Origin: a virus
Taxonomy: Duplodnaviria; Caudoviricetes
Length of the DNA stretch: 64,000 nt
IMG/VR virus record: IMGVR_UViG_3300028364_000013
Direction: 5' to 3' (one strand)
This document shows positions 14,490 to 53,383 of the stretch, piece after piece. Both the position numbers and the translations under genes were made by a program. The notes below the pieces were generated by a model that was not told the DNA's origin, did no database searches, and saw only the letters and a program-made list of their open reading frames with translations. Each line of letters opens with the position of its first letter. The first letter of the stretch is position 1.

Positions 14490-14639
14490 AATTAAAATAA
14501 CGCACCCTAAAAATGTATAAAAATAATAGCTATTAGGTGCTGTTTATAAGGCTATTACTTGTTAATTAAATTTATTCCTATCAGATAGCTAACGCATATT
14601 TACACGCTACTATTATTATACTAAACGTTATGTGCAAGG

Positions 14640-14930
14640 CTAACTTACTGCTTCCAAAAGACGATTTTTAATCCATTCAACATTTGGAACACCATTGCCA
14701 TTTAATACTTCAAGAACTTCGTTTATGGCTTCTTTCATTTTTGGTGCAGAAATAATAAGTTTAGCGTCTTCCATTCTTATTTCATCTGTATATCCATTGT
14801 GGTCGCCATAATCTTCTTGCATTACTTCAAGTCGTGGATAATGTCCATTTTTTTCTGCATTTGGTAAATCTGCTTCTATAAAAAACATTGATTCACTTAC
14901 AACTCTTACTCTCCAATTTTCTGTATTCAT
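14640..14930 (-). CDS. cassette hypothetical protein
   Basis: bounded by complementary R sites. Confidence 0.7.
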   Translation of the reverse strand: MNTENWRVRVVSESMFFIEADLPNAEKNGHYPRLEVMQEDYGDHNGYTDEIRMEDAKLIISAPKMKEAINEVLEVLNGNGVPNVEWIKNRLLEAVS

Positions 14931-15113
14931 TTCGTTTTTAAATTAAATTTAGTGCTGATAAACCGCCCAGCACATAACAGCGTGCATAATAAATTGGCAA
15001 TTCAGTGGTTAAATGAACCTTAGTTTTTCTAATCGAGTTCTGTGGCAGTAGGAAGTTTTCGTTTTCAAAATCGCCAACTTCTCATACACGCAAAACGTTA
15101 GCAAACATTTGGG

Positions 15114-15362
15114 CTACTGCTTAATTTCATCTTTCAGTTGCTCAAATCTTTCTGTTGTTACTATTATTTTTCTTGGTGTATTTTCAATTGCTCTCTCAAG
15201 TGATTGGAATAGTTCTTTTTTGCTTTTACATAAATGCTCTATTGCTTCATAAGGCGTTAATCCTCTCGCCATAGATTCAAAGATGCTTCTAAACTCTGCA
15301 TCAAATTGAAACTCTTCAAAGAACTCTTCCGTAAACTGTGATTTTAATTCAAATTGGTTCAT
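15114..15362 (-). CDS. cassette hypothetical protein, paralog of C-terminus of 1489-2037
   Basis: FDAEFRSIFESMARGLTPYEAIEHLCKSKKE. Confidence 0.75.
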   Translation of the reverse strand: MNQFELKSQFTEEFFEEFQFDAEFRSIFESMARGLTPYEAIEHLCKSKKELFQSLERAIENTPRKIIVTTERFEQLKDEIKQ

Positions 15363-15623
15363 AATAAAAACGATTTGCTAACACAACCTATACACCATAA
15401 AGCAATATAGTATTGTGCTAAGATTAAACATTGTGCTATGCTTTACGGTGCATAGCCAAACCGTTAGCAGCAATACTACTTTAGTTTTTCCAAAGAAGCT
15501 TTCTTTAGTGCCTATTTTAAAATCAACTCTCTCTTCTTCTGTCATTTCTCTTTCTTTATCACACATCAAACATCTCATTTTTGAAAATTCAGTCGGCCAC
15601 CTAAAGTTTATAATTTTCGTTCC

Positions 15624-15839
15624 TCAAATTCCAATCCTTAGCCTTAACGTTATAGGTAAGGCTGAACATCCGACATTGCAGATTAAAAATTCAAGCTCTA
15701 TTTTCTTTTCACCGTTTTCGCTCTCTTTATTTAAACCCTCAAGAAGCCTGAGTCTATATAAGTATTTTTTTGGATTTTGTAAAATACCCAATTCGAATAA
15801 GAAAAATAAAGTACCTAATATGTAAAATAAATTTATCAT
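15624..15839 (-). pseudogene. N-terminal part of a membrane protein truncated at array 2
   Basis: MINLFYILGTLFFLFELGILQNPKKY; reads into the R' site at 15649. Confidence 0.45.
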
Positions 15840-20577: not shown

Positions 20578-20599
20578 AATACTTTTATTTTAAAAATTG

Positions 20600-20673
20600 T
20601 GACCCGTCCAGGATTCGAACCTGGGACCGCAAGTTTAGAAAACTTGTGCTCTATCCAACTGAGCTAACGGGCC
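20600..20673 (-). tRNA. tRNA-Arg(TCT)
   Basis: GGCCCGT acceptor, GCTC/GAGC D stem, CAAGT-TT TCT AA-ACTTG anticodon arm, CCAGG TTCGAAT CCTGG T arm; CCA not encoded. Confidence 0.95.
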
Positions 20674-41230: not shown

Positions 41231-41295
41231 GGGCAACCACAAGAAAGATAGATGGAGTTATTTATGAAGGGAACATTAATAAAGGAGAAGATTAA
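41200..41295 (+). pseudogene. C-terminal remnant of an HNH-like endonuclease
   Basis: IVNSLSNLQPLWATTRKIDGVIYEGNINKGED*. Confidence 0.5.
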
Positions 41296-41669
41296 TCTAA
41301 AATTATAATAGAATCTATTTGTTTTCTGGTCATATTGACTCTTGAAACTTGAATTAAAACCTCATCTCCAAGCCTATAGCTATCTCCATTATTAAAATCG
41401 TTTATACAATAGTTTTCTTCATCAACAAATAGATTATTGGATTTTAGCCAATCTTCTGAAACCATTGTATCACATCCATTTTCTATTATTTCTATAAAAA
41501 CACCAAACGAATTTACACTGGAAATAATTCCTTTAAATTTCTCTCCAATTTTACTCTTCAGAAACTCGCACTGCTTGTACTTAATGGATTCTCTCTGTGC
41601 TTTAGCAGCTTTTTGTTCTTGTTCACTTAGATGTTCGCACATTTGTGATAATTGTGATTTATTATACAT
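41292..41669 (-). CDS. rnr: RNase R C-terminal piece (end of RNB + S1)
   Basis: CEHLSEQEQKAAKAQRESIKYKQCEF..IGEKF.G.ISSV..FGVFIE..YRLGDEV.IQV. Confidence 0.85.
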   Translation of the reverse strand: MYNKSQLSQMCEHLSEQEQKAAKAQRESIKYKQCEFLKSKIGEKFKGIISSVNSFGVFIEIIENGCDTMVSEDWLKSNNLFVDEENYCINDFNNGDSYRLGDEVLIQVSRVNMTRKQIDSIIILD

Positions 41670-42472
41670 TATATAGGTAAATTTACTTTATTTAACATTT
41701 TATTTGAGACATGGGTATATATCTCAGTGGTTTTAGATGATGAGTGACCCGCTATCTTCTGAATAATTCTAAGGTCTGTGCCGCTTTCCAATAGATTTGT
41801 GAAAGAAGAATGGCGTAGTGTGTGAATTGAAGAGTTGTTGTCAATATACTTCTTATATATTTTCTGACAACTACCAACTGAATACTGGTCATAATTTTGA
41901 CCATTAAACAAATAAGTTTTTGGCCTATATTCTTTCCAATAATACCTCAACAACTGCAGCACATAGTTCGATAATGGTACAACCCTATCTTTTCTTCCCT
42001 TAGCATTTTTAATATAAATCAACATTCTGATGGAGTCAATATCTTCTATTTTTAAATTAACAACTTCTGATACACGAAGACCAACTGAATACGTTAAAGT
42101 CAATATTGCTTTATGTTTTAAATTTTCAATCTTTGATAACTTATCTTTAATCAATTCTCCATCTATAACTTTTGGTAACTTCTTTTCTTTCTTTGGCCTC
42201 TTAAAAGATACTTTATCATACTTTTTATTGAGCCCAAACTTATAAAGAAATCTAATTGCGTTAATAACTTGATTTTGTTTTGATATAGAAGTGAAATTAT
42301 AATTATTAAGATATAACTGAAAATCTTTTGAATTGAGGTGAATTATTCTTTTATCACCGCACCAAGTAATAAATTGCTTGATGTAATGGGTATAAATGTC
42401 CTTGGTTCTTTCAGAGTAGTTTAAATATATAAACTTTTGTTCACAAATCTTTACAATTTTTTGATTTAACAT
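41669..42472 (-). CDS. tyrosine recombinase, integron-like integrase
   Basis: YS.RT...Y, NQVINAIRFLY, RPKKEKKLP, GLRVSE, KGRKDR, HTLRHS, GHSS..TT.IYTHV. Confidence 0.9.
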   Translation of the reverse strand: MLNQKIVKICEQKFIYLNYSERTKDIYTHYIKQFITWCGDKRIIHLNSKDFQLYLNNYNFTSISKQNQVINAIRFLYKFGLNKKYDKVSFKRPKKEKKLPKVIDGELIKDKLSKIENLKHKAILTLTYSVGLRVSEVVNLKIEDIDSIRMLIYIKNAKGRKDRVVPLSNYVLQLLRYYWKEYRPKTYLFNGQNYDQYSVGSCQKIYKKYIDNNSSIHTLRHSSFTNLLESGTDLRIIQKIAGHSSSKTTEIYTHVSNKMLNKVNLPI

Positions 42473-42510
42473 CTTATATCAATTTAATAATCAATGATTT
42501 ATAAAAAGGT

Positions 42511-42534
42511 GTTTATATATAGTCGTTATGTGGC
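42511..42534 (+). other. attI-like site
   Basis: GTTTATATATAGTC-G/TTATGTGGC: R site without a partner hairpin, just upstream of the divergent integrase. Confidence 0.6.
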
Positions 42535-42693
42535 ATTATACCACCACATCTTTTTTGTGATTTTGTGTTTTTTAACTAATTCCTTCGTATGTTCTTTAAT
42601 ATCTTCGTAATCTTTTGAAACTTCATTCAATTTTTCACAAAAAGATACGTAACAATCGTATTCATCATCAATTCTACTTATACTACTTCCCAT
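42526..42693 (-). CDS. cassette 1 protein, 55 aa (not in ORF track)
   Basis: MGSSISRIDDEYDCY...WWYNAT*; stop lies within the R site. Confidence 0.6.
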   Translation of the reverse strand: MGSSISRIDDEYDCYVSFCEKLNEVSKDYEDIKEHTKELVKKHKITKKMWWYNAT

Positions 42694-42701
42694 AATTTAA
42701 C

Positions 42702-42828
42702 GCCACATAACAACGTATATAAAACATTGCTTTAGTGGTCTTTTATTTAGTTTATTAATAATTCAAAATTTGTTGTTTATCTGTTAAGTTTCGGTTGGCA
42801 ACGTTTCATATACAAAACGTTGTGGTGC
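42702..42828 (+). repeat. attC-like 1
   Basis: GCCACATAAC; GTATATAAAACATTGC / GCAACGTTTCATATAC; GTTGTGGTGC. Confidence 0.85.
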
Positions 42829-42830
42829 AT

Positions 42831-43139
42831 TTAGAAAGAAAGTGCTTCACCTGCAACAACACCAGGGTCGCCATATTTACCTTCATCTTCTTCATCAAAG
42901 TTTTGTATAATTTGAAGAGCCTTTTTATACTTCATAAGGCGTTCAGTTAATGTCTGTTTTGCAAGTTCAATCCATTCACCATTTGGCGAGTGCTTGCAAC
43001 ATAAAATTCCGTTAATCACTTTTTCTTGATAATACATAGTTAAAAAACGCACCACAACAATGTATAACAGCAATAGCGGGTTGTAGTGCTTAATTTTAAC
43101 ACCATTGCTTCTAATTAATATTCTGTTTAATTCAATCAT
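42831..43139 (-). CDS. cassette 2 protein
   Basis: ORF; start either in attC2 or at internal MYYQ. Confidence 0.65.
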   Translation of the reverse strand: MIELNRILIRSNGVKIKHYNPLLLLYIVVVRFLTMYYQEKVINGILCCKHSPNGEWIELAKQTLTERLMKYKKALQIIQNFDEEDEGKYGDPGVVAGEALSF

Positions 43140-43186
43140 TTGTGCTTTCTAATCCGCTACTGCGGTTATACTCAGCGTTATAAGTC
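43049..43186 (+). repeat. attC-like 2
   Basis: GCACCACAAC; GTATAACAGCAATAGCGG / CCGCTACTGCGGTTATAC; GTTATAAGTC. Confidence 0.88.
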
Positions 43187-43387
43187 ATTTAGAACTTCAA
43201 TTCTATGTGGTTCATAATCAATAGGAGTTATATAATACAAACAAGGTATGTTTTTACTCAAACCTCTCATTCCAATCATTACGTCAGAATCATTTTTATA
43301 ATCTACTTTGTCAGATAAAAAACGACTTATAACATCAGCTATATGTAACACCTTTCCATCTTTATCAAATATTTCTAATTTATCCAT
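43178..43387 (-). CDS. cassette 3 protein, starts inside attC3
   Basis: MDKLEIFDKDGKVLHIADV|ISRF. Confidence 0.7.
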   Translation of the reverse strand: MDKLEIFDKDGKVLHIADVISRFLSDKVDYKNDSDVMIGMRGLSKNIPCLYYITPIDYEPHRIEVLNDL

Positions 43388-43459
43388 TGTTTCAGTATTT
43401 TAAGTTAGTATAGTAATCTATCAAGGTCGGCACTACACATAGCCCAAGCGGTTAGGTTT
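43324..43459 (+). repeat. attC-like 3
   Basis: GACTTATAAC; GCTATATGTAAC / CTACACATAGC; GTTAGGTTT. Confidence 0.8.
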
Positions 43460-44057
43460 AATATTCACTAAGTTTAATGCTACCTTCAATCTCATTTCCC
43501 CAAGCATCCCATCCTTGTCTAATATTTCTGGAGAACAATTCTAATTTATTTCCTTTAGATACTTTTTCAATAAGTTCATAAAAGAAGTCTGGTTTTTTTG
43601 AATGGCAAGGGTAGCCGTTTACATATTGTCTTTTTTCTTCAAACCAAGTTCCGTTTATTTTTTCATTTACCAATTCATTAACCTTGCCTTTGGTTGCAAA
43701 AATTAAGTATTCAGTAGACACTTTAAAAGTTCCACCCATTCCGCTACCTATTGGTTTTTTACACCATACAAGGGTTGTAGAGTATTTAAAACCCCAAGCC
43801 TTTACAACTTCTTCCGCTTTCATTAAATACTTATTTGTAACCCACAAATACAAATGACAATTATCAGCAGTCAAGTTTTTAATAGGCAGGTTTACTATGT
43901 CTTCAAATTTCATTGTGTTATAAGGCAAGTCTGCAGACTTATCGCTTTTTGGATTAAACACTTGTACCCCATTTTCTTTTTTGTAACCACCGCTTAATGG
44001 TCTCCCTGCTTTTTGCTCCCAAGCTGGGTCTGCATATATTATATTGTATTTATTCAT
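43458..44057 (-). CDS. MT-A70 family methyltransferase (cassette 4)
   Basis: IIYADPAW, YNTM, LYLWVTN, WGFKY, HSKKP, LELFSR..R.GW..WGNE. Confidence 0.88.
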   Translation of the reverse strand: MNKYNIIYADPAWEQKAGRPLSGGYKKENGVQVFNPKSDKSADLPYNTMKFEDIVNLPIKNLTADNCHLYLWVTNKYLMKAEEVVKAWGFKYSTTLVWCKKPIGSGMGGTFKVSTEYLIFATKGKVNELVNEKINGTWFEEKRQYVNGYPCHSKKPDFFYELIEKVSKGNKLELFSRNIRQGWDAWGNEIEGSIKLSEY

Positions 44058-44085
44058 ATTTATTCTTTAAAATCCGTTCATACTA

Positions 44086-44143
44086 AAACCTAACAATGTG
44101 TAAAACGGCATTAAAACGACCGTTTACACTAGGCGTTGTAAGT
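44086..44143 (+). repeat. attC-like 4 (short)
   Basis: AAACCTAAC; GTGTAAAACGG / CCGTTTACAC (one unpaired base); GTTGTAAGT. Confidence 0.85.
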
Positions 44144-44156
44144 AATTGGTTTTTAC

Positions 44157-44381
44157 CTACTGCGTATCTGCATAAGCACATTCATTACATTTTCTTTCCA
44201 CATATACAGCAGTGTTTTCGCAACTATCACAAACCAACTCCGTACAACACCGTGTATAAATAATAGCTTGCTTATTTCTGTCTTTTAAGATTACGTAAGC
44301 TTCATCGCTTATTTTGTTATCTTGGTGCAACCTATCAAGTGTAAATCCTGTTTGGATAAGTTGGTTATTTGTTTCGTTCAT
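44157..44381 (-). CDS. cassette 5 protein, starts inside attC5
   Basis: ORF crosses R'' at 44241-44248. Confidence 0.65.
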   Translation of the reverse strand: MNETNNQLIQTGFTLDRLHQDNKISDEAYVILKDRNKQAIIYTRCCTELVCDSCENTAVYVERKCNECAYADTQ

Positions 44382-44440
44382 TTTTATAAAATTTAGTTGT
44401 TATTAATCGCTACTATTCATACACAAATCAGTTGTAGTGA
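44241..44440 (+). repeat. attC-like 5 (long)
   Basis: CGTACAAC; GTGTATAAATAATAGC / GCTACTATTCATACAC; GTTGTAGTGA. Confidence 0.82.
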
Positions 44441-44443
44441 ATG

Positions 44444-44635
44444 CTACAATCCTACCTTTGATTTAAGTTCAGATATTGACATCCAGCTTTTAATTGATTT
44501 TGGTTGAACCCAATCGCTTTCCATGTCTGCTTTGAACATTCCATCTTTGTAATAGGCAAATTCAAGTACTCCACTAATATGTTCAACCAACACCCTTGTC
44601 ATATTTTCGGGTAATTCTAAATCTGTATTTTTCAT
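44444..44635 (-). CDS. cassette 6 protein
   Basis: self-contained ORF. Confidence 0.65.
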   Translation of the reverse strand: MKNTDLELPENMTRVLVEHISGVLEFAYYKDGMFKADMESDWVQPKSIKSWMSISELKSKVGL

Positions 44636-44667
44636 TTCAATTATACATTTAAGTTAATAATCCGCAC

Positions 44668-44738
44668 TCACTACAACACTTTGTATAGTGCATAGCTCGT
44701 GCCTCACTACGACACCATACAAGATGCCGTTGTAGGTA
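44668..44738 (+). repeat. attC-like 6
   Basis: TCACTACAAC; TGTATAGTG / CACCATACA; GTTGTAGGTA. Confidence 0.82.
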
Positions 44739-44747
44739 ATAAATTTA

Positions 44748-44930
44748 CTACTCTTGTGGTTCAAGAATGTCATAAGCATCTCTTATACATCCTTTTAATG
44801 TTGTGGCAACTGTTTGCATCCTAAAAGCACCGTTGTAATCTTCGGCTTTTATCTTATCATCAATTAAGCCTTGTAAATGTTGCCACTTGGTTTGCCATTC
44901 TTCAATCTGTTGTTTCAATTTATCTTCCAT
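44748..44930 (-). CDS. cassette 7 protein
   Basis: self-contained ORF. Confidence 0.65.
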   Translation of the reverse strand: MEDKLKQQIEEWQTKWQHLQGLIDDKIKAEDYNGAFRMQTVATTLKGCIRDAYDILEPQE

Positions 44931-44969
44931 TATATTTTTAAGTTTAGTGTTTCAATTCTGCAGGATTAC

Positions 44970-45030
44970 TACCTACAACAAAGGCTATAAAGCCATACAA
45001 GTACAGGCTCATAGCCTAGACATTATATGC
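44970..45030 (+). repeat. attC-like 7 (R' degenerate, ATT)
   Basis: TACCTACAAC; GGCTATAAAGCC / GGCTCATAGCC; ATTATATGC. Confidence 0.78.
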
Positions 45031-45038
45031 AATAAAAA

Positions 45039-45314
45039 TTACTTACGTCTTGGGTCTTCATCACACCATAGTTTATAACAATTAACTTTTCGCTTTATTA
45101 ACCGTGCTTTGTCTTGGATTTCTTCAAGGTTGGTAGCTGTTAATATAGCATCTAATGACACACTTCCACCACTACTGTCATCTAAATATCTTCCAAGCCA
45201 AACACTACCTTCGTCCGCTAATTCGTGCATTTTTGCATAATCAGGGAAACATTCTTTTACTTCTTTAATTAATTTTTGTGAGTACATAATCGTAATTTTA
45301 AAAGCATATAACAA
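45039..45314 (-). CDS. cassette 8 protein (probable start MYSQK)
   Basis: ORF inside cassette. Confidence 0.7.
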   Translation of the reverse strand: MLYAFKITIMYSQKLIKEVKECFPDYAKMHELADEGSVWLGRYLDDSSGGSVSLDAILTATNLEEIQDKARLIKRKVNCYKLWCDEDPRRK

Positions 45315-45437
45315 CGTGTATATTTTATTGCTACATACCGCCTATCTAAAGGCTTGTTAATATTTATTCAGTTCTGTTCTTATTTAAAGTTTATTGATAC
45401 CTATACGCAACAAAGCATACACAAACCGTTACCAAAC
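45304..45437 (+). repeat. attC-like 8
   Basis: GCATATAAC; GTGTATATTTTATTGC / GCAACAAAGCATACAC; GTTACCAAAC. Confidence 0.82.
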
Positions 45438-45438
45438 A

Positions 45439-45729
45439 TTAAATAACTTGGTACATCATTCCTGCAACTTGTGGCCCGTGTGTGTCATACGCTTTATCAT
45501 AAGCATCATTACTATCTTCTGCCTCTATTTCAAACGTCCATCCGTCTTTCCCTTCTGATTCAAACCAGAATAAATAACGTTTGGTAACACTATCTATAGG
45601 TAATGTCTGCCCTAGCTTTAGTGCTTGTAAGCGAAATTCAAATTCGTTTAAGAACTCTTGGTCTGTTGGTGTTCCTCCGATACCCTCCATTCCTTTTACT
45701 ATGTCAATTACTTTTTCTGATATATTCAT
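45439..45729 (-). CDS. cassette 9 protein, starts inside attC9
   Basis: ...LPIDSV|TKRYL. Confidence 0.7.
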   Translation of the reverse strand: MNISEKVIDIVKGMEGIGGTPTDQEFLNEFEFRLQALKLGQTLPIDSVTKRYLFWFESEGKDGWTFEIEAEDSNDAYDKAYDTHGPQVAGMMYQVI

Positions 45730-45788
45730 GATTAATTTTTAGTTATTTAAGTCGGGCAAAAAATACCCATAGATTTAACGTTAGCATT
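45579..45788 (+). repeat. attC-like 9 (long)
   Basis: GTTTGGTAAC; ATCTATAGGTA / TACCCATAGAT; GTTAGCATT. Confidence 0.8.
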
Positions 45789-46036
45789 CATAGTATTTGC
45801 CTTTCATCTATTGGTTTTTGGCATTCAATACAGTAAGGCGTACCATTTTCATCATTATCTCTACCTTTAGCCTGTGAGCATCGGCAAAATAACGAAATGC
45901 TAACATCAGGTATGGAGCAGTTTTTTACTCGCTCCTGGTCACATTCATTCCACACCTTCAACAGTGCTTGTTGTACGCTTGTACTATTGGGATAAGCTGT
46001 TTCAGCCTGTATCTCTTTTATTCTTTCAGTTGTCAT
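45788..46036 (-). CDS. cassette 10 protein, starts inside attC10
   Basis: ...CSIPDV|SISLFC; C-terminal CIEC. Confidence 0.7.
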   Translation of the reverse strand: MTTERIKEIQAETAYPNSTSVQQALLKVWNECDQERVKNCSIPDVSISLFCRCSQAKGRDNDENGTPYCIECQKPIDERQIL

Positions 46037-46098
46037 ACAATAAAGTTTAGTGTTTCAAATCCGTAAAAAATCCGCTCCATACCCCTAGCGTTATATGC
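45896..46098 (+). repeat. attC-like 10 (long)
   Basis: AATGCTAAC; GGTATGGAGCAGTTTTTTAC / GTAAAAAATCCGCTCCATACC; GTTATATGC. Confidence 0.88.
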
Positions 46099-46161
46099 AA
46101 TGCTACGTTATCACTTCGTATTAAGTTTCATCATAACATTCCCTTTGTTTTTCCACCGAAC

Positions 46162-46725
46162 TTATAATTCTAAATCCATATTAAATGGTTTAAAATTATT
46201 ATCTTCAATCATTTTCCTAACTCTTGGATGAAATTTATAAAATATTGAATTTGGTAAATCAATATCCCAATCCATCACGTCTATTAATTTGTTAATAATT
46301 CTACCTTGGAATATTTCATCTACATTTTCTATAAATAATTCATCAAAAGGAAAATGGACATTTCCAAATGTTGAATACATTTCAACCCAATCTAATATTT
46401 CTTTTTCTAATCTACTGTAATCATATCTAACTAAATCTTTTACTAATAGTTCGTTTTCACTATGTGCTATTATCTGACCACCATAGTCTAATAATTCTTT
46501 TCTATAAAGTTTCTTATGATTATCAGATATTTCTTTATACATTTTCTCAGGCATCTCACTACCATTTTCTATGTTTTTATTAACAAATGTTAAAAACTCT
46601 TTATCATCCCATAAATCATCTGAACTTGGTTCATAATTCATATCCTTTAAATTGCCATCTTGGTCAATATATGCTTCATTCAAATATTCACGTATAGTCG
46701 TTGCTATAAATTTTCTTAATTCCAT
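46162..46725 (-). CDS. cassette 11 protein
   Basis: MELRKFIATTIREYLNE; TATTTAT motif upstream. Confidence 0.75.
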   Translation of the reverse strand: MELRKFIATTIREYLNEAYIDQDGNLKDMNYEPSSDDLWDDKEFLTFVNKNIENGSEMPEKMYKEISDNHKKLYRKELLDYGGQIIAHSENELLVKDLVRYDYSRLEKEILDWVEMYSTFGNVHFPFDELFIENVDEIFQGRIINKLIDVMDWDIDLPNSIFYKFHPRVRKMIEDNNFKPFNMDLEL

Positions 46726-46839
46726 AATAATAAATAGTTTAATCTATATATAAATAATCACTTTTTAATATTCCACCCACAAAAATAAAACAAAAAGGCT
46801 TCGTTCTTCGTATCAGCATTTGTGGTTAAAATCCGCACA

Positions 46840-46861
46840 GCATATAACAAGTGTTAGTTGC
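46840..46861 (+). repeat. collapsed attC-like 11 (arms missing)
   Basis: GCATATAAC-AAGT-GTTAGTTGC. Confidence 0.7.
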
Positions 46862-47111
46862 AATGCTGTGGGTTTTTGCAACCTTCGTAGTGTTCCATAT
46901 CGCTTCCGTAACCGTTATACCACAAAACATATTCGCAATTTCTAACTTTTACTATTTGTAAGTCTGCCTTCCATTTAGGGTTGCTTATGTACATTTCTCT
47001 GTTATCTTTTTCTTGCTCAATATTTTCTTTGGTTTCATCTCCACAAGAAGAAAGCACAGCAACTAACACAAAATATAGCGTATAACTTAATTTCGTTCTT
47101 AAATTTTTCAT
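46854..47111 (-). CDS. cassette 12 lipoprotein, starts inside attC12
   Basis: MKNLRTKLSYTLYFVLVAVLSSC lipobox. Confidence 0.7.
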   Translation of the reverse strand: MKNLRTKLSYTLYFVLVAVLSSCGDETKENIEQEKDNREMYISNPKWKADLQIVKVRNCEYVLWYNGYGSDMEHYEGCKNPQHCN

Positions 47112-47194
47112 CTGTTCTGTTTTTAAAGTTTATTAATTATTAAAAGTTTTGTGCTGTTTTTGTCGTTACACACCATATTCAACACGTTATCGGC
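47059..47194 (+). repeat. attC-like 12
   Basis: GCAACTAAC; AATATAGCGTATAAC / GTTACACACCATATT; GTTATCGGC. Confidence 0.78.
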
Positions 47195-47204
47195 AAATGC
47201 TACA

Positions 47205-47378
47205 TTACTTCTTCGTATCAATATTTACGTTAGAAGTTTTTATTTTTTGCCCACGCTCTTTGATTAACTTACGTATTTCAGTTTCACATAAGTTTTTACG
47301 ACTTCTACCATCTTCTTTAGCAATAGCATCAAGAATATCAGTTTCATCTCTATCTAAATGTATTTCTATTCTTACCAT
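47205..47378 (-). CDS. RHH/CopG-like protein, cassette 13 (not in ORF track)
   Basis: MVRIEIHLDRDETDILDAIAKEDGRSRKNLCETEIRKLIKE. Confidence 0.65.
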   Translation of the reverse strand: MVRIEIHLDRDETDILDAIAKEDGRSRKNLCETEIRKLIKERGQKIKTSNVNIDTKK

Positions 47379-47695
47379 TAATCAATCATTTTAATTGATG
47401 AGTATGCAATGTTCCAAACCTCTCCATTTTCTCTTTTACATTTAACTTTCTTTGGATTTAGTTTTAAAACTTCCCAAATTTCACCTTTAAATTTATCACT
47501 AGCAACGGAAACTATGTCTCCTACTTTCAAATCGGTTTTTGATTTTTCTTTCCGTTCCAATTTAATTTGATATTCTTGTTCACGAATAAGTCTATTTGCA
47601 TCAGCAATTACTTTGTTCAATTCATCTAATGATAATCCAGTCAAGTCTATTTTACTTTCAGTATTTATCGTTGCCAGTTCTTGTAGTAAATTCAT
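47378..47695 (-). CDS. cassette 13 protein with SH3/KOW-like C-terminus
   Basis: LKVGDIV......GEIWEV.KLNPKKVKC. Confidence 0.7.
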   Translation of the reverse strand: MNLLQELATINTESKIDLTGLSLDELNKVIADANRLIREQEYQIKLERKEKSKTDLKVGDIVSVASDKFKGEIWEVLKLNPKKVKCKRENGEVWNIAYSSIKMID

Positions 47696-47849
47696 CTTAT
47701 TTTGTTTTAGTGTTATAGTTAATCATACGACAAACTTACGATAAAGTTTCGTATAAACCAAATCTTTTTCAATTATTTTTCTTCCGACCCTAAAAAATAA
47801 AAACTTATTTAGTGCTTCGTATTGAAATTAAGATAGATAATCCGCATCA

Positions 47850-47919
47850 GCCGATAACATTTTGTATATTTCAGTTTGCGAAAAGCAAACCGATAACATA
47901 CAATTTGCCGTTACCCTTA
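47850..47919 (+). repeat. attC-like 13
   Basis: GCCGATAAC; TGTATATTTCAGTTTGC / GCAAACCGATAACATACA; GTTACCCTTA. Confidence 0.85.
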
Positions 47920-47922
47920 ATA

Positions 47923-48420
47923 CTAGACATCTGTTTTCATAAAAGACATCCAATGCGTATTTGAGCGTTTACCTGATTTGTGTCCAAATAATGGTTGATG
48001 GCCAATGGCATTTAATATTTGAGTAACTGTAATTTGGGTTTCGTTCCATTTGAATATTAAAGTCCCATAAGGCTCTAAAACTCGCATACATTCATTAAAT
48101 CCAGTTTTTATATCTAATTCCCAAGTAGGTAATAAAACACCATACTTTTTAGCCATCCAACTGTCTTTTCCTAACTTATTTAAGTGTGGTGGGTCAAATA
48201 CTACCATTTTGAAAGTATTGTCTTTAAATGGCATATCTCTAAAATCAACCTCAATATCAGGTTTAACCTCTATTGTTCTAATTCCAGTATTTACGCTACT
48301 ATCTTTTACTTCTACGGTTTCCGTTCTTATGTCAGCAAATAAAACATTAGGGTTTGTTTTGTCAAACCAGAACATTCTACTTCCGCAACAAGCATCTAAT
48401 ATTTTTTTATCTGTATTCAT
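47923..48420 (-). CDS. class I SAM-dependent methyltransferase (cassette 14)
   Basis: ILDACCGSRMFWFDK, DFRDMPF, VVFDPPH, ECMRVL..GTLIFKWNE. Confidence 0.85.
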   Translation of the reverse strand: MNTDKKILDACCGSRMFWFDKTNPNVLFADIRTETVEVKDSSVNTGIRTIEVKPDIEVDFRDMPFKDNTFKMVVFDPPHLNKLGKDSWMAKKYGVLLPTWELDIKTGFNECMRVLEPYGTLIFKWNETQITVTQILNAIGHQPLFGHKSGKRSNTHWMSFMKTDV

Positions 48421-48451
48421 TATTCAAATTTCGTTTTTAATCAACCCGTAC

Positions 48452-48524
48452 TAAGGGTAACAATTTGTATAATGCATAATTTGTAAAAACAAATTCCGAC
48501 ACCATACAATAGCCGTTAGCGGTA
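48452..48524 (+). repeat. attC-like 14
   Basis: TAAGGGTAAC; TGTATAATG / CACCATACA; GTTAGCGGTA. Confidence 0.82.
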
Positions 48525-48528
48525 ATGG

Positions 48529-48759
48529 TCAGACGTTGTATCTAACAGCAGATGCCATTGCTATCAACAATAGTATTCCTGTTATAATAGCACCATCTGT
48601 TCCGAACATTTGTCCTATACAAAACATTACACCACCTGCCAATATTGTTGATACAAACATATACCATCCAGTTCCACTTTTAGGCTTTAATAAACCACTA
48701 CCGCTAACAAAGGGTTTATTAAATGGCTCAGTTTCGTTTTTCAAATTATCTTTTTCCAT
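48529..48759 (-). CDS. cassette 15 membrane protein
   Basis: ...FNKPFV|SGSG; R'' TACCGCTAAC at 48699; partner arm not found. Confidence 0.65.
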   Translation of the reverse strand: MEKDNLKNETEPFNKPFVSGSGLLKPKSGTGWYMFVSTILAGGVMFCIGQMFGTDGAIITGILLLIAMASAVRYNV

Positions 48760-48859
48760 ATTTTAAAGTTTTATGATTCTAATTAATTTTTGTGCGTAAA
48801 GTAACATTAAGTTAATTATCATAAAATATGATGAAAGTATATCTAAAAAAATAAATAAG

Positions 48860-50422
48860 CTATTGTCCGCCATTCATATAATACCACAATAATCTATGAC
48901 TCAAAATATCGCTGTATCTTCTTATTGGTGATGTAAAGTGACTATAGTGCTTGAATCCGAGTCCATAGTGACCAATTATTTGAGTTGAATAAACTGCTTT
49001 CGACATTGAGCGAATAGCTAACGTTGAAATCATTGCTTCCTCACCACTTCCAGACGCTTTCTTCAACATCTCGTTGAGAGATGCTTTGGTAGCTTCCATG
49101 CTTCCTGAAGTATTAAAGTGATAACCGAACTGAGATACGAATAAACTTAACTCATGCAGTTTCTCTTCACTTGGAAGGTCGTGTGTTCTATATACGAATG
49201 GCTTGGTAAGTCCGTGTGCATAAGTTGCAACATACTTGTTAGCCAATAACATGTACTCTTCAATAAGTTGATGAGCATCTGCAGATTCATGAAAGAAAAC
49301 ATCTATTGGAACATTGTCCTCATCAAGAACAAAGTTTGGCTCTCTTCTGTTGAAGGTGACCGCTCCATCTTTAAATCTTTTCTTTCTAACTTTCTTTGCA
49401 ATGCCATTCAATATTTTCACACAATCGAATACTCCCATCCCTGGTGGAACGCTTTCTATTCTGTCGGCAGTTCCTTCTATAATCTCTTGCGCTTCTTCAT
49501 ACGTCAATCTACAATCAGAGTTGATTACAGTCTTCTTGAAATTGTGCTTAACAACTTCTCCATCTGGAGACATCTGAAAGATAACCGAGAATGTCAGTTT
49601 TTCTTCATTTGGTCGTAAGCTACAGATTCCATTAGAAAGCCTCTCTGGGAGCATTGGAATACATCTATCAACAAGATAAACTGAAGTCGCTCTTCTAAAT
49701 GCTTCCTTATCCAATTCACTTCCTGGTCTAACATAATGTGTTACATCAGCAATGTGAACTCCAATCTCGTAATTCCCATTATCCAATTTCTTGAATGATA
49801 TTGCATCATCAAAATCTTTTGCACTGTCTGGGTCAATGGTGATTGTCAAATCTCCACGCATATCTCTACGCTTAAGAATCTCCTTTTCAGAAATCTCAAC
49901 TGGAATGTCTTCAGCTTCTTTCATAACTGCATCAGAGAAATCATAATCAATATTATGCTTAAACATAATGCTGTTCATTTCAGTCTCGTGAGTTTCAGCT
50001 GCGCCAATCACTTTTGTGACAATACCTTTTGGGCTTTTGTCCTTCTTGTGCCATCGGTGCAATTTAACAACCACAACCTCTCCATCCTTAGCGCCATTTA
50101 GGTGCTCCATTGGAACATAGAAATCTACTGGCATCTTACCTCCAGAAGTTCTAACAAAAGCAAATCCCTTTTCTTCATTGATGTCAATTACACCAGAGAA
50201 TTCAGTTTTGCTTCTATCTTCAACTCTTTCTACTATACCTTGTTCTCCAGTACCTTTTCCGCTTTCGTCTTTAACAATTGACACTGTGACCTTATCTCCA
50301 TGAAGAGCTTGGCCTGTATTTTTTTTGTGAATGAACAAATCATCATTGCCTTCTAATATTAAGTAAGCATGACCGTTTCTTATAAACTCTATTGTTCCTT
50401 CAGTTTGTTTTAATTTTTTCAT
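48860..50422 (-). CDS. rnr: RNase R, N-terminal piece (CSD1/2 + RNB), lacks S1
   Basis: TIDPDSAKDFDDA, VHIADV, RATSVYL, HQLIEEYMLLAN, HFTSPIRRYSD. Confidence 0.92.
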   Translation of the reverse strand: MKKLKQTEGTIEFIRNGHAYLILEGNDDLFIHKKNTGQALHGDKVTVSIVKDESGKGTGEQGIVERVEDRSKTEFSGVIDINEEKGFAFVRTSGGKMPVDFYVPMEHLNGAKDGEVVVVKLHRWHKKDKSPKGIVTKVIGAAETHETEMNSIMFKHNIDYDFSDAVMKEAEDIPVEISEKEILKRRDMRGDLTITIDPDSAKDFDDAISFKKLDNGNYEIGVHIADVTHYVRPGSELDKEAFRRATSVYLVDRCIPMLPERLSNGICSLRPNEEKLTFSVIFQMSPDGEVVKHNFKKTVINSDCRLTYEEAQEIIEGTADRIESVPPGMGVFDCVKILNGIAKKVRKKRFKDGAVTFNRREPNFVLDEDNVPIDVFFHESADAHQLIEEYMLLANKYVATYAHGLTKPFVYRTHDLPSEEKLHELSLFVSQFGYHFNTSGSMEATKASLNEMLKKASGSGEEAMISTLAIRSMSKAVYSTQIIGHYGLGFKHYSHFTSPIRRYSDILSHRLLWYYMNGGQ

Positions 50423-50745: not shown

Positions 50746-52317
50746 TTAATAATTTATATTCTCTGGTCTCATTTGAGGGAAAAATAACACATCTTGAATT
50801 GATTTTTGTTCAGTTAAAATCATTACCAATCTATCAATTCCAATACCAAGACCTGCAGTAGGAGGCATCCCATATTCCAATGCTCTCAAGAAATCTTCAT
50901 CCATACCCATAGCTTCATCATCACCTGCTCCAGCAAGACGAAGTTGCTCTTCAAACCTTTCTCTCTGGTCAATTGGGTCATTAAGCTCACTATAAGCATT
51001 AGCAACTTCTTTACCATTGATTACAAGTTCAAATCTTTCAACTATGCCAGCGTCTGTTCTATGCTTTTTAGCAAGCGGAGACATCTCAACTGGATAATCG
51101 TATACAAACGTTGGTTGAATCAATTTAGGCTCAACAAACTCTCCGAAAATTTCATCAAGAAGCTTCGCTCTACCCATAGAGTTATCAACATGGATTTCAT
51201 GACCAGCAAGAAATACTCTAAGCTCATTATCTGTCATGCTCATTGCTTGACATCCAGAATATCTTTCAATCGCATCAAAGAACTTTATTTTTTCGAATTC
51301 TCCAAAGAAGCTAATTTTATTCTCTCCGAACACAGCTTCAACATCATCAACAATTGAGAATGCTGCTTTTTTTACAATCTGCTCACAAAAGTCCATCATC
51401 CACATATAATCTCTATTGGCTGCGTACAACTCAACTTGAGTAAACTCTGGATTATGGAACCTGCTCATTCCTTCGTTTCTGAAATCTTTAGCAAATTCAT
51501 ACACTCTTTCGAATCCTCCAACAATCAACCTCTTAAGATATAGCTCATTGGCAATTCTCAAATAAAGAGGAATGTCCAATTTATTGTGATGTGTCATAAA
51601 AGGCTTTGCGGTTGCACCACCATGAATTGGCTGTAAAACTGGAGTCTCAACTTCCATGAAAAATTCTTCATCCAATACTTCACGTATTGTTCGAATTATT
51701 CGTGTTCTATCTCTAAATACTTTTTTTGAATCTGGGTTTACCACAAGGTCAACATATCTTTGACGATACTTCATCTCTTGGTTCTCAAAAGAATCGTGAA
51801 CATTTCCTTCCTCATCTTTCTTAACAGTAGGAAGAGGTTTTAAAGACTTAGAAAGTATTGTAAACTTTGTTGCACGAATAGTTAGTTCACCAGTTTGAGT
51901 GACAAACATTTTACCTTCAACACCAACAAAGTCACCAAGGTCAACCAGTTTCTTAAAAACTGTATTGTACATTGTTTTGTCTTCGTCTGGACAAAGCTCG
52001 TCTCTTGAGATGAACACTTGCATTCTTCTTTCTGAATCATCTTGTAATTTAAAGAAAGATGCTTTTCCCATTATGTTCTTACTCATTAGCCTTCCAGACA
52101 ACTTAACAGTCCTTCCCATGTGCTCAATTTGAAGTTCTGTCGAAAAATGTTGAAGCGTATCAAACATTTCCCAAACACTTGTACAATCATATCTTATACG
52201 AGCTCCATTCTCAACATCATTGATAAACGGCTCAGCTGGATAAGGATTAATACCCAGGTCAATCATCGCTTGAAGATGCTCTCGTCTTACTATTTCTTGT
52301 TCTGATAATTTACGCAT
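50746..52317 (-). CDS. lysS: lysyl-tRNA synthetase class II
   Basis: GKASF, YRQRYVDL, YLRIANELYLKRL, FRNEGMSRFHNPEF, YGMPPTAGLGIGIDRL. Confidence 0.97.
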   Translation of the reverse strand: MRKLSEQEIVRREHLQAMIDLGINPYPAEPFINDVENGARIRYDCTSVWEMFDTLQHFSTELQIEHMGRTVKLSGRLMSKNIMGKASFFKLQDDSERRMQVFISRDELCPDEDKTMYNTVFKKLVDLGDFVGVEGKMFVTQTGELTIRATKFTILSKSLKPLPTVKKDEEGNVHDSFENQEMKYRQRYVDLVVNPDSKKVFRDRTRIIRTIREVLDEEFFMEVETPVLQPIHGGATAKPFMTHHNKLDIPLYLRIANELYLKRLIVGGFERVYEFAKDFRNEGMSRFHNPEFTQVELYAANRDYMWMMDFCEQIVKKAAFSIVDDVEAVFGENKISFFGEFEKIKFFDAIERYSGCQAMSMTDNELRVFLAGHEIHVDNSMGRAKLLDEIFGEFVEPKLIQPTFVYDYPVEMSPLAKKHRTDAGIVERFELVINGKEVANAYSELNDPIDQRERFEEQLRLAGAGDDEAMGMDEDFLRALEYGMPPTAGLGIGIDRLVMILTEQKSIQDVLFFPQMRPENINY

Positions 52318-52516: not shown

Positions 52517-53383
52517 TTATTCTTTTAATTGACCTTGCATTGCTGCGTAATACTCTAAACAATTTTGACCTGGAGAAAGTCCAGATACTTGTCCATCTCC
52601 AGTTTCAATAATCATCCACATGCCGTTTTCCATCTCAGCTATGTCAATCGTGAAGAAGTTGCTATCAATTTCGCAAGCTATCTCTTCAACAAAATCAATT
52701 GTTTCATCATTTGGAGTGCTGTGTTCTACTTTAACGTTAGAGTTTTGAGAACTTGAGATTAATCGTCTGTCATAAAAGAATAATCTATATTCATTTACAT
52801 TTTCTCCATATTTTTTCAAGTCAACAAACTCTTTAAAAACAAGACCTTCACTAAACAACTCTCCTCTATGTTCAACAAACTCCTCTACTTTCTTGAAGAG
52901 GTCTTCTCCACTGATTCCAGTATTCATTCTGAACAAGCCTGGGACTCCTTTTGCAGACTTAACAAAATCTTTCATTAAGAAGTCTTTATCTCCAAAAAAT
53001 TCAGAAATGTCTTGAAGAATGTCAGCATCCCACTCTTTAATGAAAATAGCTTTTGACGTGTGGTCTTTTGTATAATCATAAGACTCTGGGAAGTGATGAC
53101 AATTTTTGTATTGTTCTGGTGTATTCACAAGAACGTAGCCCAGTTCTTCAAGAGTTTTATATAACTCTTCGTACTGAGTTAGGTTTAACATCCAACTCCT
53201 TAATACAAGAGATGTTTTATCATCTATTTGAAATATGTTAGATTTAAACTCTCCTCTAACAAACTCATCATGACTAAACAAAAAACAATCATGACCCTGC
53301 AGTTTTGCAGCGTGATGTTCCTCTATGTAACAGTCATCAACTTTTTTATTGTCAAGTTCATGACATGGGAATAATATCTTCAT
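52517..53383 (-). CDS. ATP-grasp domain protein (R2K-like)
   Basis: RSWML, KDFVKSAK, KEFVDL, NEYRLF, FFTIDIA, IIETGDGQVSG. Confidence 0.75.
   Translation of the reverse strand: MKILFPCHELDNKKVDDCYIEEHHAAKLQGHDCFLFSHDEFVRGEFKSNIFQIDDKTSLVLRSWMLNLTQYEELYKTLEELGYVLVNTPEQYKNCHHFPESYDYTKDHTSKAIFIKEWDADILQDISEFFGDKDFLMKDFVKSAKGVPGLFRMNTGISGEDLFKKVEEFVEHRGELFSEGLVFKEFVDLKKYGENVNEYRLFFYDRRLISSSQNSNVKVEHSTPNDETIDFVEEIACEIDSNFFTIDIAEMENGMWMIIETGDGQVSGLSPGQNCLEYYAAMQGQLKE

Follow-up and report, generated by a model that had tools for sequence, protein, structure and literature searches.

The 64,000-nt window, the whole stretch of DNA analysed here, belongs to a giant phage and contains an integron-like row of 15 exchangeable cassettes (42525-48860) that adjoins the gene for a 267-aa Xer-like recombinase. 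We read this locus, with a probability of about 0.7, as a phage-borne integron-like cassette system served by a small Xer-type tyrosine recombinase, with a gene polarity opposite to that of bacterial integrons. The minus strand carries 15/15 cassette ORFs and nearly everything between 34 and 57 kb, in agreement with an earlier note on this DNA that had described all cassette ORFs as antisense and co-directional with their surroundings. The pattern extends to about 80 related large phages. Arrays lie next to the recombinase, on its upstream side, in 80 related loci, and a scan for box pairs downstream of the recombinase in these loci returned few or none. The array is framed in the window by the following features.

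41292-41669, minus strand: C-terminal S1 fragment of RNase R, its ATG overlapping the recombinase stop
41669-42472, minus strand: Xer/IntI-like tyrosine recombinase of the array, 267 aa, Pfam Phage_integrase and Phage_int_SAM_4
42473-42533, no strand assigned: attI-like junction from the recombinase start to the first cassette, half-site pattern ATA-N8-GTT
48860-50422, minus strand: N-terminal part of RNase R/II (OB, CSD2, RNB), the upstream neighbour of the array

The best NCBIfam matches of the recombinase, both under cutoff, were XerA (169 bits) and, with a lower score, integrase_gron (TIGR02249; 152.6 bits where the cutoff is 265, in two stretches). Among PDB structures the best match was XerA (4a8e), aligned in one stretch, while IntI4 (2a3v) matched in two, the better covering query residues 18-172. 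By both the NCBIfam profile and the PDB comparison, the additional domain specific to IntI is absent from the 267-aa protein. As the recombinase lacks this insertion, a single-strand mechanism is an analogy.

The ORFs are flanked by perfect 9-nt box pairs of the form GTTx6...x6AAC, with 15 such pairs in the 6.4-kb array vs. 11 in the remaining 57.6 kb; the pair of cassette 5 is imperfect (GTTGTA/TACAAC only). There are 15 sites in the window, imperfect palindromes that vary in the centre, have AAC/GTT cores and are arranged R''-L''...L'-R'. A cassette is built of a hairpin site, in the order x6AAC, arm, loop, arm and GTTx6, and then an ORF, the site being 5' of the ORF in 15/15 cassettes and likewise throughout the related family. 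The attI-like junction ends in the box GTTATGTGG (42525-42533). Comparison with close relatives, where cassette c1 is recombinase-proximal in two loci (L024 and L025) and at position 2 in another (L013), indirectly supports this junction as the probable insertion point. The RNase R gene is uninterrupted in L041, L068 and L069. Transcription into the array would enter from the RNase R/II N-terminal part, and a promoter at attI would be unable to drive the cassettes, since their ORFs point towards the recombinase; a motif analysis of the sites identified no promoter.

Natural variants define the mobile unit. Identical cassettes found in differing contexts keep the site upstream of the ORF, and homology ends at AAC on both sides, a breakpoint equivalent to G/TT on the opposite strand; exact breakpoints were seen in five sets of related loci (L019/L068, L047/L060, L063/L077, L013/L025 and L082/L083/L084). 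By these sequence comparisons, the mobile unit is shown to be a hairpin site plus a gene, which is an integron cassette of the canonical kind whose ORF faces the other way. The box that opens a cassette and the R'' box of that cassette's site are complementary, in perfect 9-nt pairs. All recent shared cassettes (97-100% identical) keep their own site, with both breaks at AAC, and the routine crossover is, as judged from these breakpoints, at the R' box; leader and body therefore normally travel as one cassette.

The stems show compensatory changes in 12/13 pairs among 90 unique sites. There is also a marked strand asymmetry, with 156 G·U-type vs. 18 A·C-type cells favouring the ORF-sense strand, and one invariant G·T pair. 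In the window, the minus strand folds better in three sites (44666-44740, 47847-47921 and 48450-48526). From this we infer that the ORF-sense strand is the folding strand. The extra unpaired bases sit on the crossover-carrying arm, whereas in classical attC sites they are not so placed.

Many genes begin within a folded recombination site, because the cassette genes are reversed relative to those of bacterial integrons; as the site precedes the gene, about 40% of cassettes have their start codon in the hairpin loop. These mostly have the ~118-nt class of site, and some have longer ones. On statistical grounds, the 3' arm and R box are then read as protein, the GTT usually serving as a Val codon. 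The shortest leaders have about 20 residues, and the longest form N-terminal domains of 45-60. The sites and ORFs of the window are listed below, a slash marking the junction between leader and body.

42703-42827, minus strand: cassette-1 hairpin site, non-coding
43178-43387, minus strand: cassette-3 ORF, 69 aa, junction HIADV/ISRF, stop TAA within the R box
43325-43459, minus strand: cassette-3 long hairpin site, holding the ATG (43387) and first 19 codons of that ORF
43458-44057, minus strand: cassette-4 ORF, MT-A70 DNA methyltransferase, wholly within the cassette body
44157-44381, minus strand: cassette-5 ORF, 74 aa, starting in the long site 44245-44439 and crossing the box in the +2 frame
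45439-45729, minus strand: cassette-9 ORF, 96 aa, junction PIDSV/TKRY
45580-45788, minus strand: cassette-9 long hairpin site, holding the ATG (45729) and a 48-aa N-terminal module
45788-46036, minus strand: cassette-10 ORF, 82 aa, junction IPDV/SISL, body without Met
45896-46098, minus strand: cassette-10 long hairpin site, holding the ATG (46036) and a 45-aa N-terminal module
46854-47111, minus strand: cassette-12 ORF, 85 aa, lipoprotein-type signal peptide across site arm and R box, crossing the box in the +2 frame
47059-47194, minus strand: cassette-12 hairpin site, ~119 nt, holding the ATG (47111)
48529-48759, minus strand: cassette-15 ORF, 76 aa, junction KPFV/SGSG, small membrane protein
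48700-48859, minus strand: distal-most site, with an R''/L'' half and ATG (48759) and no recognisable partner arm, abutting the stop of the RNase R N-terminal part
43050-43185, 44086-44143, 44669-44737, 44971-45028, 45303-45436, 46840-46861, 47850-47918, 48453-48523, minus strand: further non-coding sites
47205-47378, minus strand: RHH ORF, wholly within the body
47923-48420, minus strand: methyltransferase ORF, wholly within the body
42526-42693, 44444-44635, 44748-44930, 45039-45287, 46162-46725, 47378-47695, minus strand: other ORFs wholly within the body

The earlier note had named six ORFs as opening in the site (those of cassettes 3, 5, 9, 10, 12 and 15); all begin in the hairpin spacer, beyond the R'' box, and continue through the arm, and translation reproduced the four junctions that it had quoted, which belong to cassettes 3, 9, 10 and 15. 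The lipoprotein signal that it had assigned to the cassette-12 arm is, with the translation read by eye, a lipoprotein-type signal, MKNLRTKLSYTLYFVLVAVLSSC, that straddles the box; the PHROG match of this ORF covers only residues 1-30. Its placing of stop codons in the R site of cassettes 1 and 3 was also correct, as the TAA of the ..TAAC box ends ORFs 42526-42693 and 43178-43387, and the same box contains the stop in 70/388 family cassettes. The cassette-3 site and leader have a homologue in L059 (82% identical), and the cassette-5 ORF, where repeat family D2 is represented, has a Cys-rich and zinc-ribbon-like body. A seventh ORF, 42831-43139, is also open from within the loop of a site; a typical ATG lies 21 nt past the box, inside the body, where the ORF therefore probably starts.

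Across hundreds of related sequences, site-encoded heads and unrelated bodies meet exactly at one GTT (Val) codon. The earlier note had proposed a search for the same N-terminal segment joined to different bodies at this codon, and such combinations were found, with 20 body clusters for the cassette-9 head and 52 for that of cassette 10. Protein matches to the cassette-9 ORF comprised 23 with the head only (20 body clusters), 43 with the body only (42 clustered, with 24 unrelated leader clusters) and 3 full-length, so that 20 unrelated bodies follow its 48-aa head and 24 unrelated heads precede its body. For the 45-aa head of cassette 10 there were 75 head-only matches, the 68 that were clustered falling into 52 unrelated body clusters. 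Head-only and body-only matches end or begin at the junction, and the DNA agrees: sites are about 100% identical from TAAC to GTTA, after which identity falls abruptly to about 0.3. The cassette-9 site and module recur in L085 and L087, where conservation runs as far as GTTA and the body beyond is unrelated. L082-L084 retain the cassette-10 site, with 10 codons differing over the 44-codon leader, and then have unrelated bodies. In the predicted structure of the cassette-9 protein, a helical head (pLDDT 53-71) precedes an independent, confidently folded alpha/beta body (pLDDT about 89) that starts at residue 50, two residues past the junction. Natural variation shows repeated recombination of heads and bodies, with GTT as the exact point of junction.

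How this came about can be explained in more than one way. In its strong form, the combinatorial protein shuffling suggested by the earlier note would amount to an active programmed domain shuffler, in which the recombinase routinely exchanges at both boxes and heads and bodies within one array are recombined on the timescale of infections. The numerous combinations, the nucleotide-sharp break, the dominance of one reading phase (through-reading by 43 frame-0 leaders vs. 15 of frame 2 and 1 of frame 1) and the presence of four frame-0 leader cassettes in a single array all fit such an activity. Yet recent shared cassettes all retain their own site, the strand asymmetry favours one strand, and identity reaches 94-96% between the closest sites that precede unrelated bodies and about 85% for the closest shared body; we regard routine shuffling as doubtful. 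What stands of N-terminal swapping is the natural pattern with its break at GTT. Recombination at R'' is plausible but unproven, because the routine crossover is at R' and no swap product with 100% identical parts occurs among the related sequences compared.

Rather unlikely, too, is that head and body were joined only at cassette birth, when an unknown process would add a lineage-typical site to new DNA, with no later exchange at GTT. Site families are indeed promiscuous, with unrelated bodies in 506/558 site-similar pairs; one 40-nt site recurs with 100% identity next to many different bodies across many phages, and each body has its own x6 inverted repeat. But the cassette-9 body, boxes included, stands behind 24 unrelated leader clusters, which would need repeated independent capture, and the in-frame bias demands a standard interface or strong selection. 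Joining at birth can be likened to the uniform attC sites of sedentary chromosomal integrons.

A further reading would leave the leaders untranslated, with internal starts and with the open frames through the arm as by-products of a conserved DNA site. Short leaders do show little amino-acid constraint (35, 21 and 33 substitutions at codon positions 1, 2 and 3), and internal starts are plausible in ORF 42831-43139 and in bodies with an internal Met (ORFs 43178-43387 and 48529-48759). Among 103 unique sites of 105-135 nt from relatives, however, the leader reached the cassette-end stop in 43/52 cases in frame 0 and 15/21 in frame 2, vs. 1/13 in frame 1, so that open frames exceed what chance would be expected to give. 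The first in-frame ATG past GTT lies a median of 93 nt in and is missing from 17/63 bodies, and an internal start would cost a median 57% of the ORF. The long leaders differ from metagenomic copies by 13 synonymous and 9 non-synonymous codon changes (two pairwise comparisons), the cassette-10 body has no Met, and the cassette-9 domain begins just past its junction. Untranslated leaders are thus improbable. The counts lend statistical support to real gene starts within the hairpin loop and to the earlier suggestion that the site doubles as translation-initiation and coding sequence.

It is very unlikely that the hairpins are regulatory stem-loops like the PeSL cassettes of T4-type phages, shuffled by homologous recombination with the recombinase incidental: hairpins that precede small ORFs within a large phage's hyperplastic region do have this precedent (PMC2839356, PMC4122927), but homologous exchange within the site cannot break at the site/body edge, complementary box pairs across bodies and AAC breakpoints fit a site-specific mechanism, the recombinase is adjacent in 80 related loci, and the sites are enriched neither for sigma-70-type promoters (28 promoter-like vs. 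34.5 expected) nor for terminators (3 terminator-like vs. 2.2 expected).

In the integron-like reading that we prefer, cassettes move as site plus ORF, with homology ending at the AAC box, and the ORF-sense strand is probably the one that folds. Head/body swaps would be much rarer than whole-cassette moves and would most likely come from cleavage of the opposite box by this recombinase, with the other strand folded; the shared reading phase at the junction would keep the fusions in frame. Tentatively, the hairpin sites might then constitute a standard in-frame interface (phase 0, Val codon) at which the recombinase could join any loop-encoded N-terminal module to any body. If so, this would be a prokaryotic-virus analogue of exon shuffling, yielding novel two-part proteins out of a common cassette pool.

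We found no published description of a reversed, site-started phage cassette system. CALINs have been reported in phages (Qi et al. 2023, PMC9892861). Like integrons (IntI, attI, attC), and sedentary chromosomal ones especially, the phage system has a tyrosine recombinase beside an attI-like site, a one-directional array, imperfect palindromic sites with AAC/GTT cores and crossover in one box, and a cassette-start box complementary to the box of its own site; its cassettes relocate to the recombinase-proximal slot, and uniform site families carry unrelated cargo. Unlike integrons, in which the ORF is on the top strand and attC is 3', the array is hosted by a large phage, its 267-aa recombinase is Xer-like without the IntI insertion, and its ORFs are all reversed with the site 5'. 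The site loop carries start codons and N-terminal segments or domains, and genes read towards the recombinase, ruling out Pc-type drive from attI.

Shufflons and invertible tail-fibre or hsdS segments (Rci, Gin/Cin-type) act by inversion within a fixed set in one genome and swap C-termini. They too have site-specific sites within coding sequence and exchange protein ends on a constant partner, whereas the phage units are direct and mobile between genomes, with head and body both variable; shufflon-type inversion is ruled out by the direct orientation of all cassette ORFs and sites. PeSLs carry promoter and terminator motifs and are exchanged by homologous recombination without a dedicated recombinase. 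The phage array resembles them in having stem-loops ahead of small accessory ORFs, within hyperplastic regions, and in modular gene exchange, and differs in exact breakpoints at the boxes, an adjacent recombinase and a coding arm; with no promoter or terminator enrichment, it does not have the identity of a PeSL cassette. In class 1 integrons, ORF-11/ORF-18 in attI1, fused cassettes and occasional N-terminal fusions, e.g. AAC(6')-Ib with an OXA-1 N-terminus, are known (PMC8876359; PMC4670013). As in attI1, the phage site gives a translation-initiation region and an ORF over the crossover point. The class 1 cases involve a single attI or rare accidental attC loss and mostly translational coupling, whereas the phage feature is systematic, lies in attC-like sites and gives true in-frame fusions.

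Integrons are the model for gene-cassette capture, and how cassettes arise remains an open question. The phage system occurs abundantly in uncultured phages and uses a simpler enzyme, and its natural variants map both cassette joints to the nucleotide, so that the genesis of cassettes and the choice of strand can be put to a direct test. A compact tool for in-frame DNA assembly might also be modelled on it. One of the joints falls inside genes and has repeatedly yielded in-frame fusions, which points to a natural route to modular small phage proteins in an array that also encodes DNA methyltransferases and an RHH protein.

The row of small ORFs lies within a 168.6 kb IMG/VR virus record of ~32% G+C, beside a recombinase gene and two parts of an RNase R gene, as follows.

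48860-50422, minus strand: N-terminal part of RNase R/II
6.4 kb, minus strand: row of small ORFs (the cassette array)
41669-42472, minus strand: tyrosine recombinase, 267 aa
41292-41669, minus strand: S1 C-terminal fragment of RNase R

The recombinase and the array (7.2 kb together) split the RNase R gene at the RNB/S1 linker, and the ATG of the S1 fragment (41292-41669) overlaps the recombinase stop. In three relatives, L041, L068 and L069, the RNase R gene is unbroken and placed elsewhere relative to the array. The highest scores of the recombinase were to XerA models and the XerA structure 4a8e, and integron integrase models fell below the cutoff and matched in two stretches, which argues that the 267-aa enzyme is Xer-like, not a classical IntI. 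Elsewhere in the window the phage has genes for a class II aminoacyl-tRNA synthetase of D/K/N type (50746-52317), for an R2K ATP-grasp protein (52517-53383) and for tRNA-Arg(TCT) (20599-20673). An Rfam search returned one tRNA and nothing else, a megablast search of the array region against the phage collection gave no match, and almost none of the small ORFs could be named by Pfam or PHROGs.

By eye and by script, every array ORF was found to lie between the two boxes of an inverted pair GTTx6...x6AAC. Perfect pairs number 15 in the array vs. 11 in the remaining 57.6 kb of the window. The sites, which separate consecutive bodies (the parts between boxes), are imperfect palindromes between 13 and about 200 nt long; their conserved plus-strand halves are AAC-A-N5-TAT (5') and ATA-N8/9-GTT (3'). 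Box pairs and palindromes together give 15 cassettes, in agreement with the numbering in the earlier note; 43050-43088 was rejected as a separate short site, being part of the 118-nt site 43050-43185. A search for the loop motif gave no more than two copies within the window. Using the recombinase as query, we collected 80 related loci (L-numbers) from large phage contigs. The box pairs of these loci are concentrated on the upstream side of the recombinase gene and follow its sense, with few or none downstream. These loci yielded 451 bodies, 388 of them unique.

Several units in the window differ in layout. A second mini-array without a recombinase lies at about 14500-15700, with the same half-site pattern as the main array and box pairs GTTATGTGC/GCACATAAC at 14627/14970 and GTTAGCAAA/TTTGCTAAC at 15097/15374. 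The ends of cassette 11 (187-aa ORF, 46090-46861), at 46089-46151 and 46675-46859, are conserved and reappear around variable middles in many loci, with several occurrences in L041. Its junction with cassette 12 has just 4 nt from AAC to GTT, and the cassette may represent another type of mobile unit. Two ORFs overlap in cassette 13 (47205-47695), one for a 57-aa ribbon-helix-helix protein and the other for its 105-aa partner, in a toxin-antitoxin-like layout. Cassettes of the same system are also present in contigs of 7-32 kb with ERF, SSB, RNase T, DnaJ or DnaA_C genes (L083, L084, L085-L087), and are thus not confined to the large-phage lineage.

As R-box complementarity is symmetric and gives no orientation, we judged orientation by cassettes in differing contexts, by position in close relatives, and by stem covariation and strand asymmetry. 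Two cassettes, L019_6704 and L068_2252, show 100% identity over a stretch that begins just past the AAC on the upstream side of a unique 116-nt site, takes in the site and the ORF, and ends at the AAC behind the ORF; outside this stretch they are unrelated. The pairs L047/L060, L063/L077 and L013/L025 behave in the same way, with the upstream site kept, and among the homologous cassettes compared no pair retained the downstream site instead. The putative "body-only" pairs L013_3025/L025_7955 and L065_2447/L078_9833 were discarded because their box calls were mis-registered. Three different contigs contain the cassette for protein P0100 in identical form, and here too both breaks fall at AAC. 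Among close relatives, cassette c1 takes second place in L013 and the recombinase-proximal one in L024 and L025, which is what excision and then re-insertion at an attI would give. Across 90 unique ~118-nt sites, the 13-bp stem shows compensatory changes at 12 pairs, with 156 G·U-type cells vs. 18 of A·C type and one nearly invariant G·T pair, which makes the ORF-sense strand the one that folds better; the minus strand also folds better for three window sites. By these three tests, a cassette on the plus strand runs TTx6, reversed ORF, x6AAC, L'', loop, L', G, which is the canonical integron cassette but with the gene turned round. Context comparison, the relocation of c1 and strand asymmetry thus bear out the earlier note's view that the cassette genes are antisense.

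Many of these genes had also been proposed to start within their own hairpin. In the window, six ORFs start beyond the box (seven by the longest-ORF rule), and the junction peptides given in the earlier note are correct. In the family, the longest ORF begins upstream of GTT in 155 of 388 unique bodies, and GTT is a Val codon in 96 of these 155. Such ORFs are concentrated in the ~118-nt site class (interquartile range 114-123), and the ATG lies within the site in 99 of 101 cases. The clearest result came from a test independent of gene calls, which used 103 unique sites of 105-135 nt and leaders (site-encoded N-terminal parts) of at least 10 codons. Frame-0 leaders occurred in 52 of the 103 sites, and 43 of the 52 were open through the whole body to a stop beside the cassette-end AAC; for frames 2 and 1, leaders open through the body numbered 15 of 21 and 1 of 13. 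The first in-frame ATG of bodies behind leaders lies a median of 93 nt in and is absent from 17 of 63, vs. 18-67 nt past the box in ordinary cassettes; the body of ORF 45788-46036 (cassette 10) has no Met. Translation very probably starts in the hairpin loop. An AlphaFold model of ORF 45439-45729 (cassette 9) has a confident alpha/beta domain from two residues past the junction, with a helical head of lower confidence; a fold search with this model named no family and gave few good matches, to residues 46-96 only. The long heads of 45-48 aa have 13 synonymous vs. 9 non-synonymous codon differences in two pairwise comparisons with metagenomic copies. Short leaders show little amino-acid constraint by a codon-position test, itself weak.

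Are heads and bodies reassorted at the Val codon? Site families proved promiscuous, as bodies were unrelated in 506 of 558 site-similar pairs. In 20 long-site pairs of at least 85% identity with unrelated bodies, identity is ~1.0 over TAAC to GTTA and then falls abruptly to ~0.3; past the edge, only GT at +10/+11 and the mirror AC on the other side are conserved. In a 5.8-billion-protein collection, ORF 45439-45729 had only three full-length matches. Another 23 matched the head only (residues 1-48, ends peaking at 48), with C-termini in 20 unrelated clusters, and 43 matched the body only (residues 48-96, starts peaking at 48), of whose leaders 42 were clustered, into 24 unrelated clusters. For ORF 45788-46036 there were 75 head-only matches, 68 of which were clustered, giving 52 body clusters. 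One match to this head, P0154, carries the label of a Mariniflexile (Flavobacteriaceae) MAG, which hints at a Bacteroidota host. At the DNA level, L082-L084 have the site and 45-aa head in common up to ATGTT, beyond which comes a different body flanked by inverted boxes of its own. L088 contains the body of ORF 45439-45729, GTTACCAA to TTGGTAAC, preceded by a site that is unrelated. The same N-terminal segment on different bodies, the pattern for which the earlier note had suggested searching relatives, is therefore found in protein and in DNA, with the break at Val (GTT).

The window/L059 pair is more likely a diverged homologue than a swap: compensatory changes are present in each of its boxes, and the bodies are alike in length and in an LY(Y)IT motif. 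L027:905 and L078:6448 have bodies 97% identical, with the N-terminal part of the ORF replaced ~45 nt upstream of GTT, and L027 is without the partner arm; this is a head replacement not using the box. In L010, L011, L013, L021, L024, L026, L029, L035, L040, L044, L068, L078 and others, a compact site of 40 nt shows 100% identity next to unrelated bodies; the recombinases of these phages are 62-79% identical to that of the window. This implies either that the phages have a pool of cassettes in common or that constraint is very strong.

The closest known systems include shufflons, the PeSL cassettes of T4-type phages, and ORF-11/ORF-18 in attI1 with fused cassettes. They also include integrons, among them phage integrons and CALINs (Qi et al., 2023), two of which have cassettes oriented as in typical bacterial arrays (PMC9892861). 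In our literature search we found no account of a phage array that combines reversed cassettes with site-encoded heads. A Pc-type promoter at attI could not drive genes that are read towards the recombinase, so their transcription must come in from the RNase R side or begin within cassettes; scanning for sigma-70 promoters and for terminators revealed no enrichment.

Whole cassettes (site and body) are 97-100% identical across different genomes, with both breaks at AAC, whereas the parts of the closest head/body swaps are just 85-96% identical. Whole-cassette movement at AAC is therefore frequent, and exchange at GTT rarer or older. The swaps may have arisen by attachment of a standard site when each cassette was first made, or by illegitimate recombination at the 9-14-nt inverted boxes. 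Assembly chimeras were rejected as the source of the edges, since a false join within a repeated site alters cassette order only and the shared sequence ends at the edge. The most economical explanation of the swaps would be the same recombinase occasionally acting on the opposite box, that is, with the other strand folded; in classical integrons the top strand is reported to be recombined too, at lower frequency (PMC9892861). The excess of one reading phase would then keep the products of such swaps in frame.
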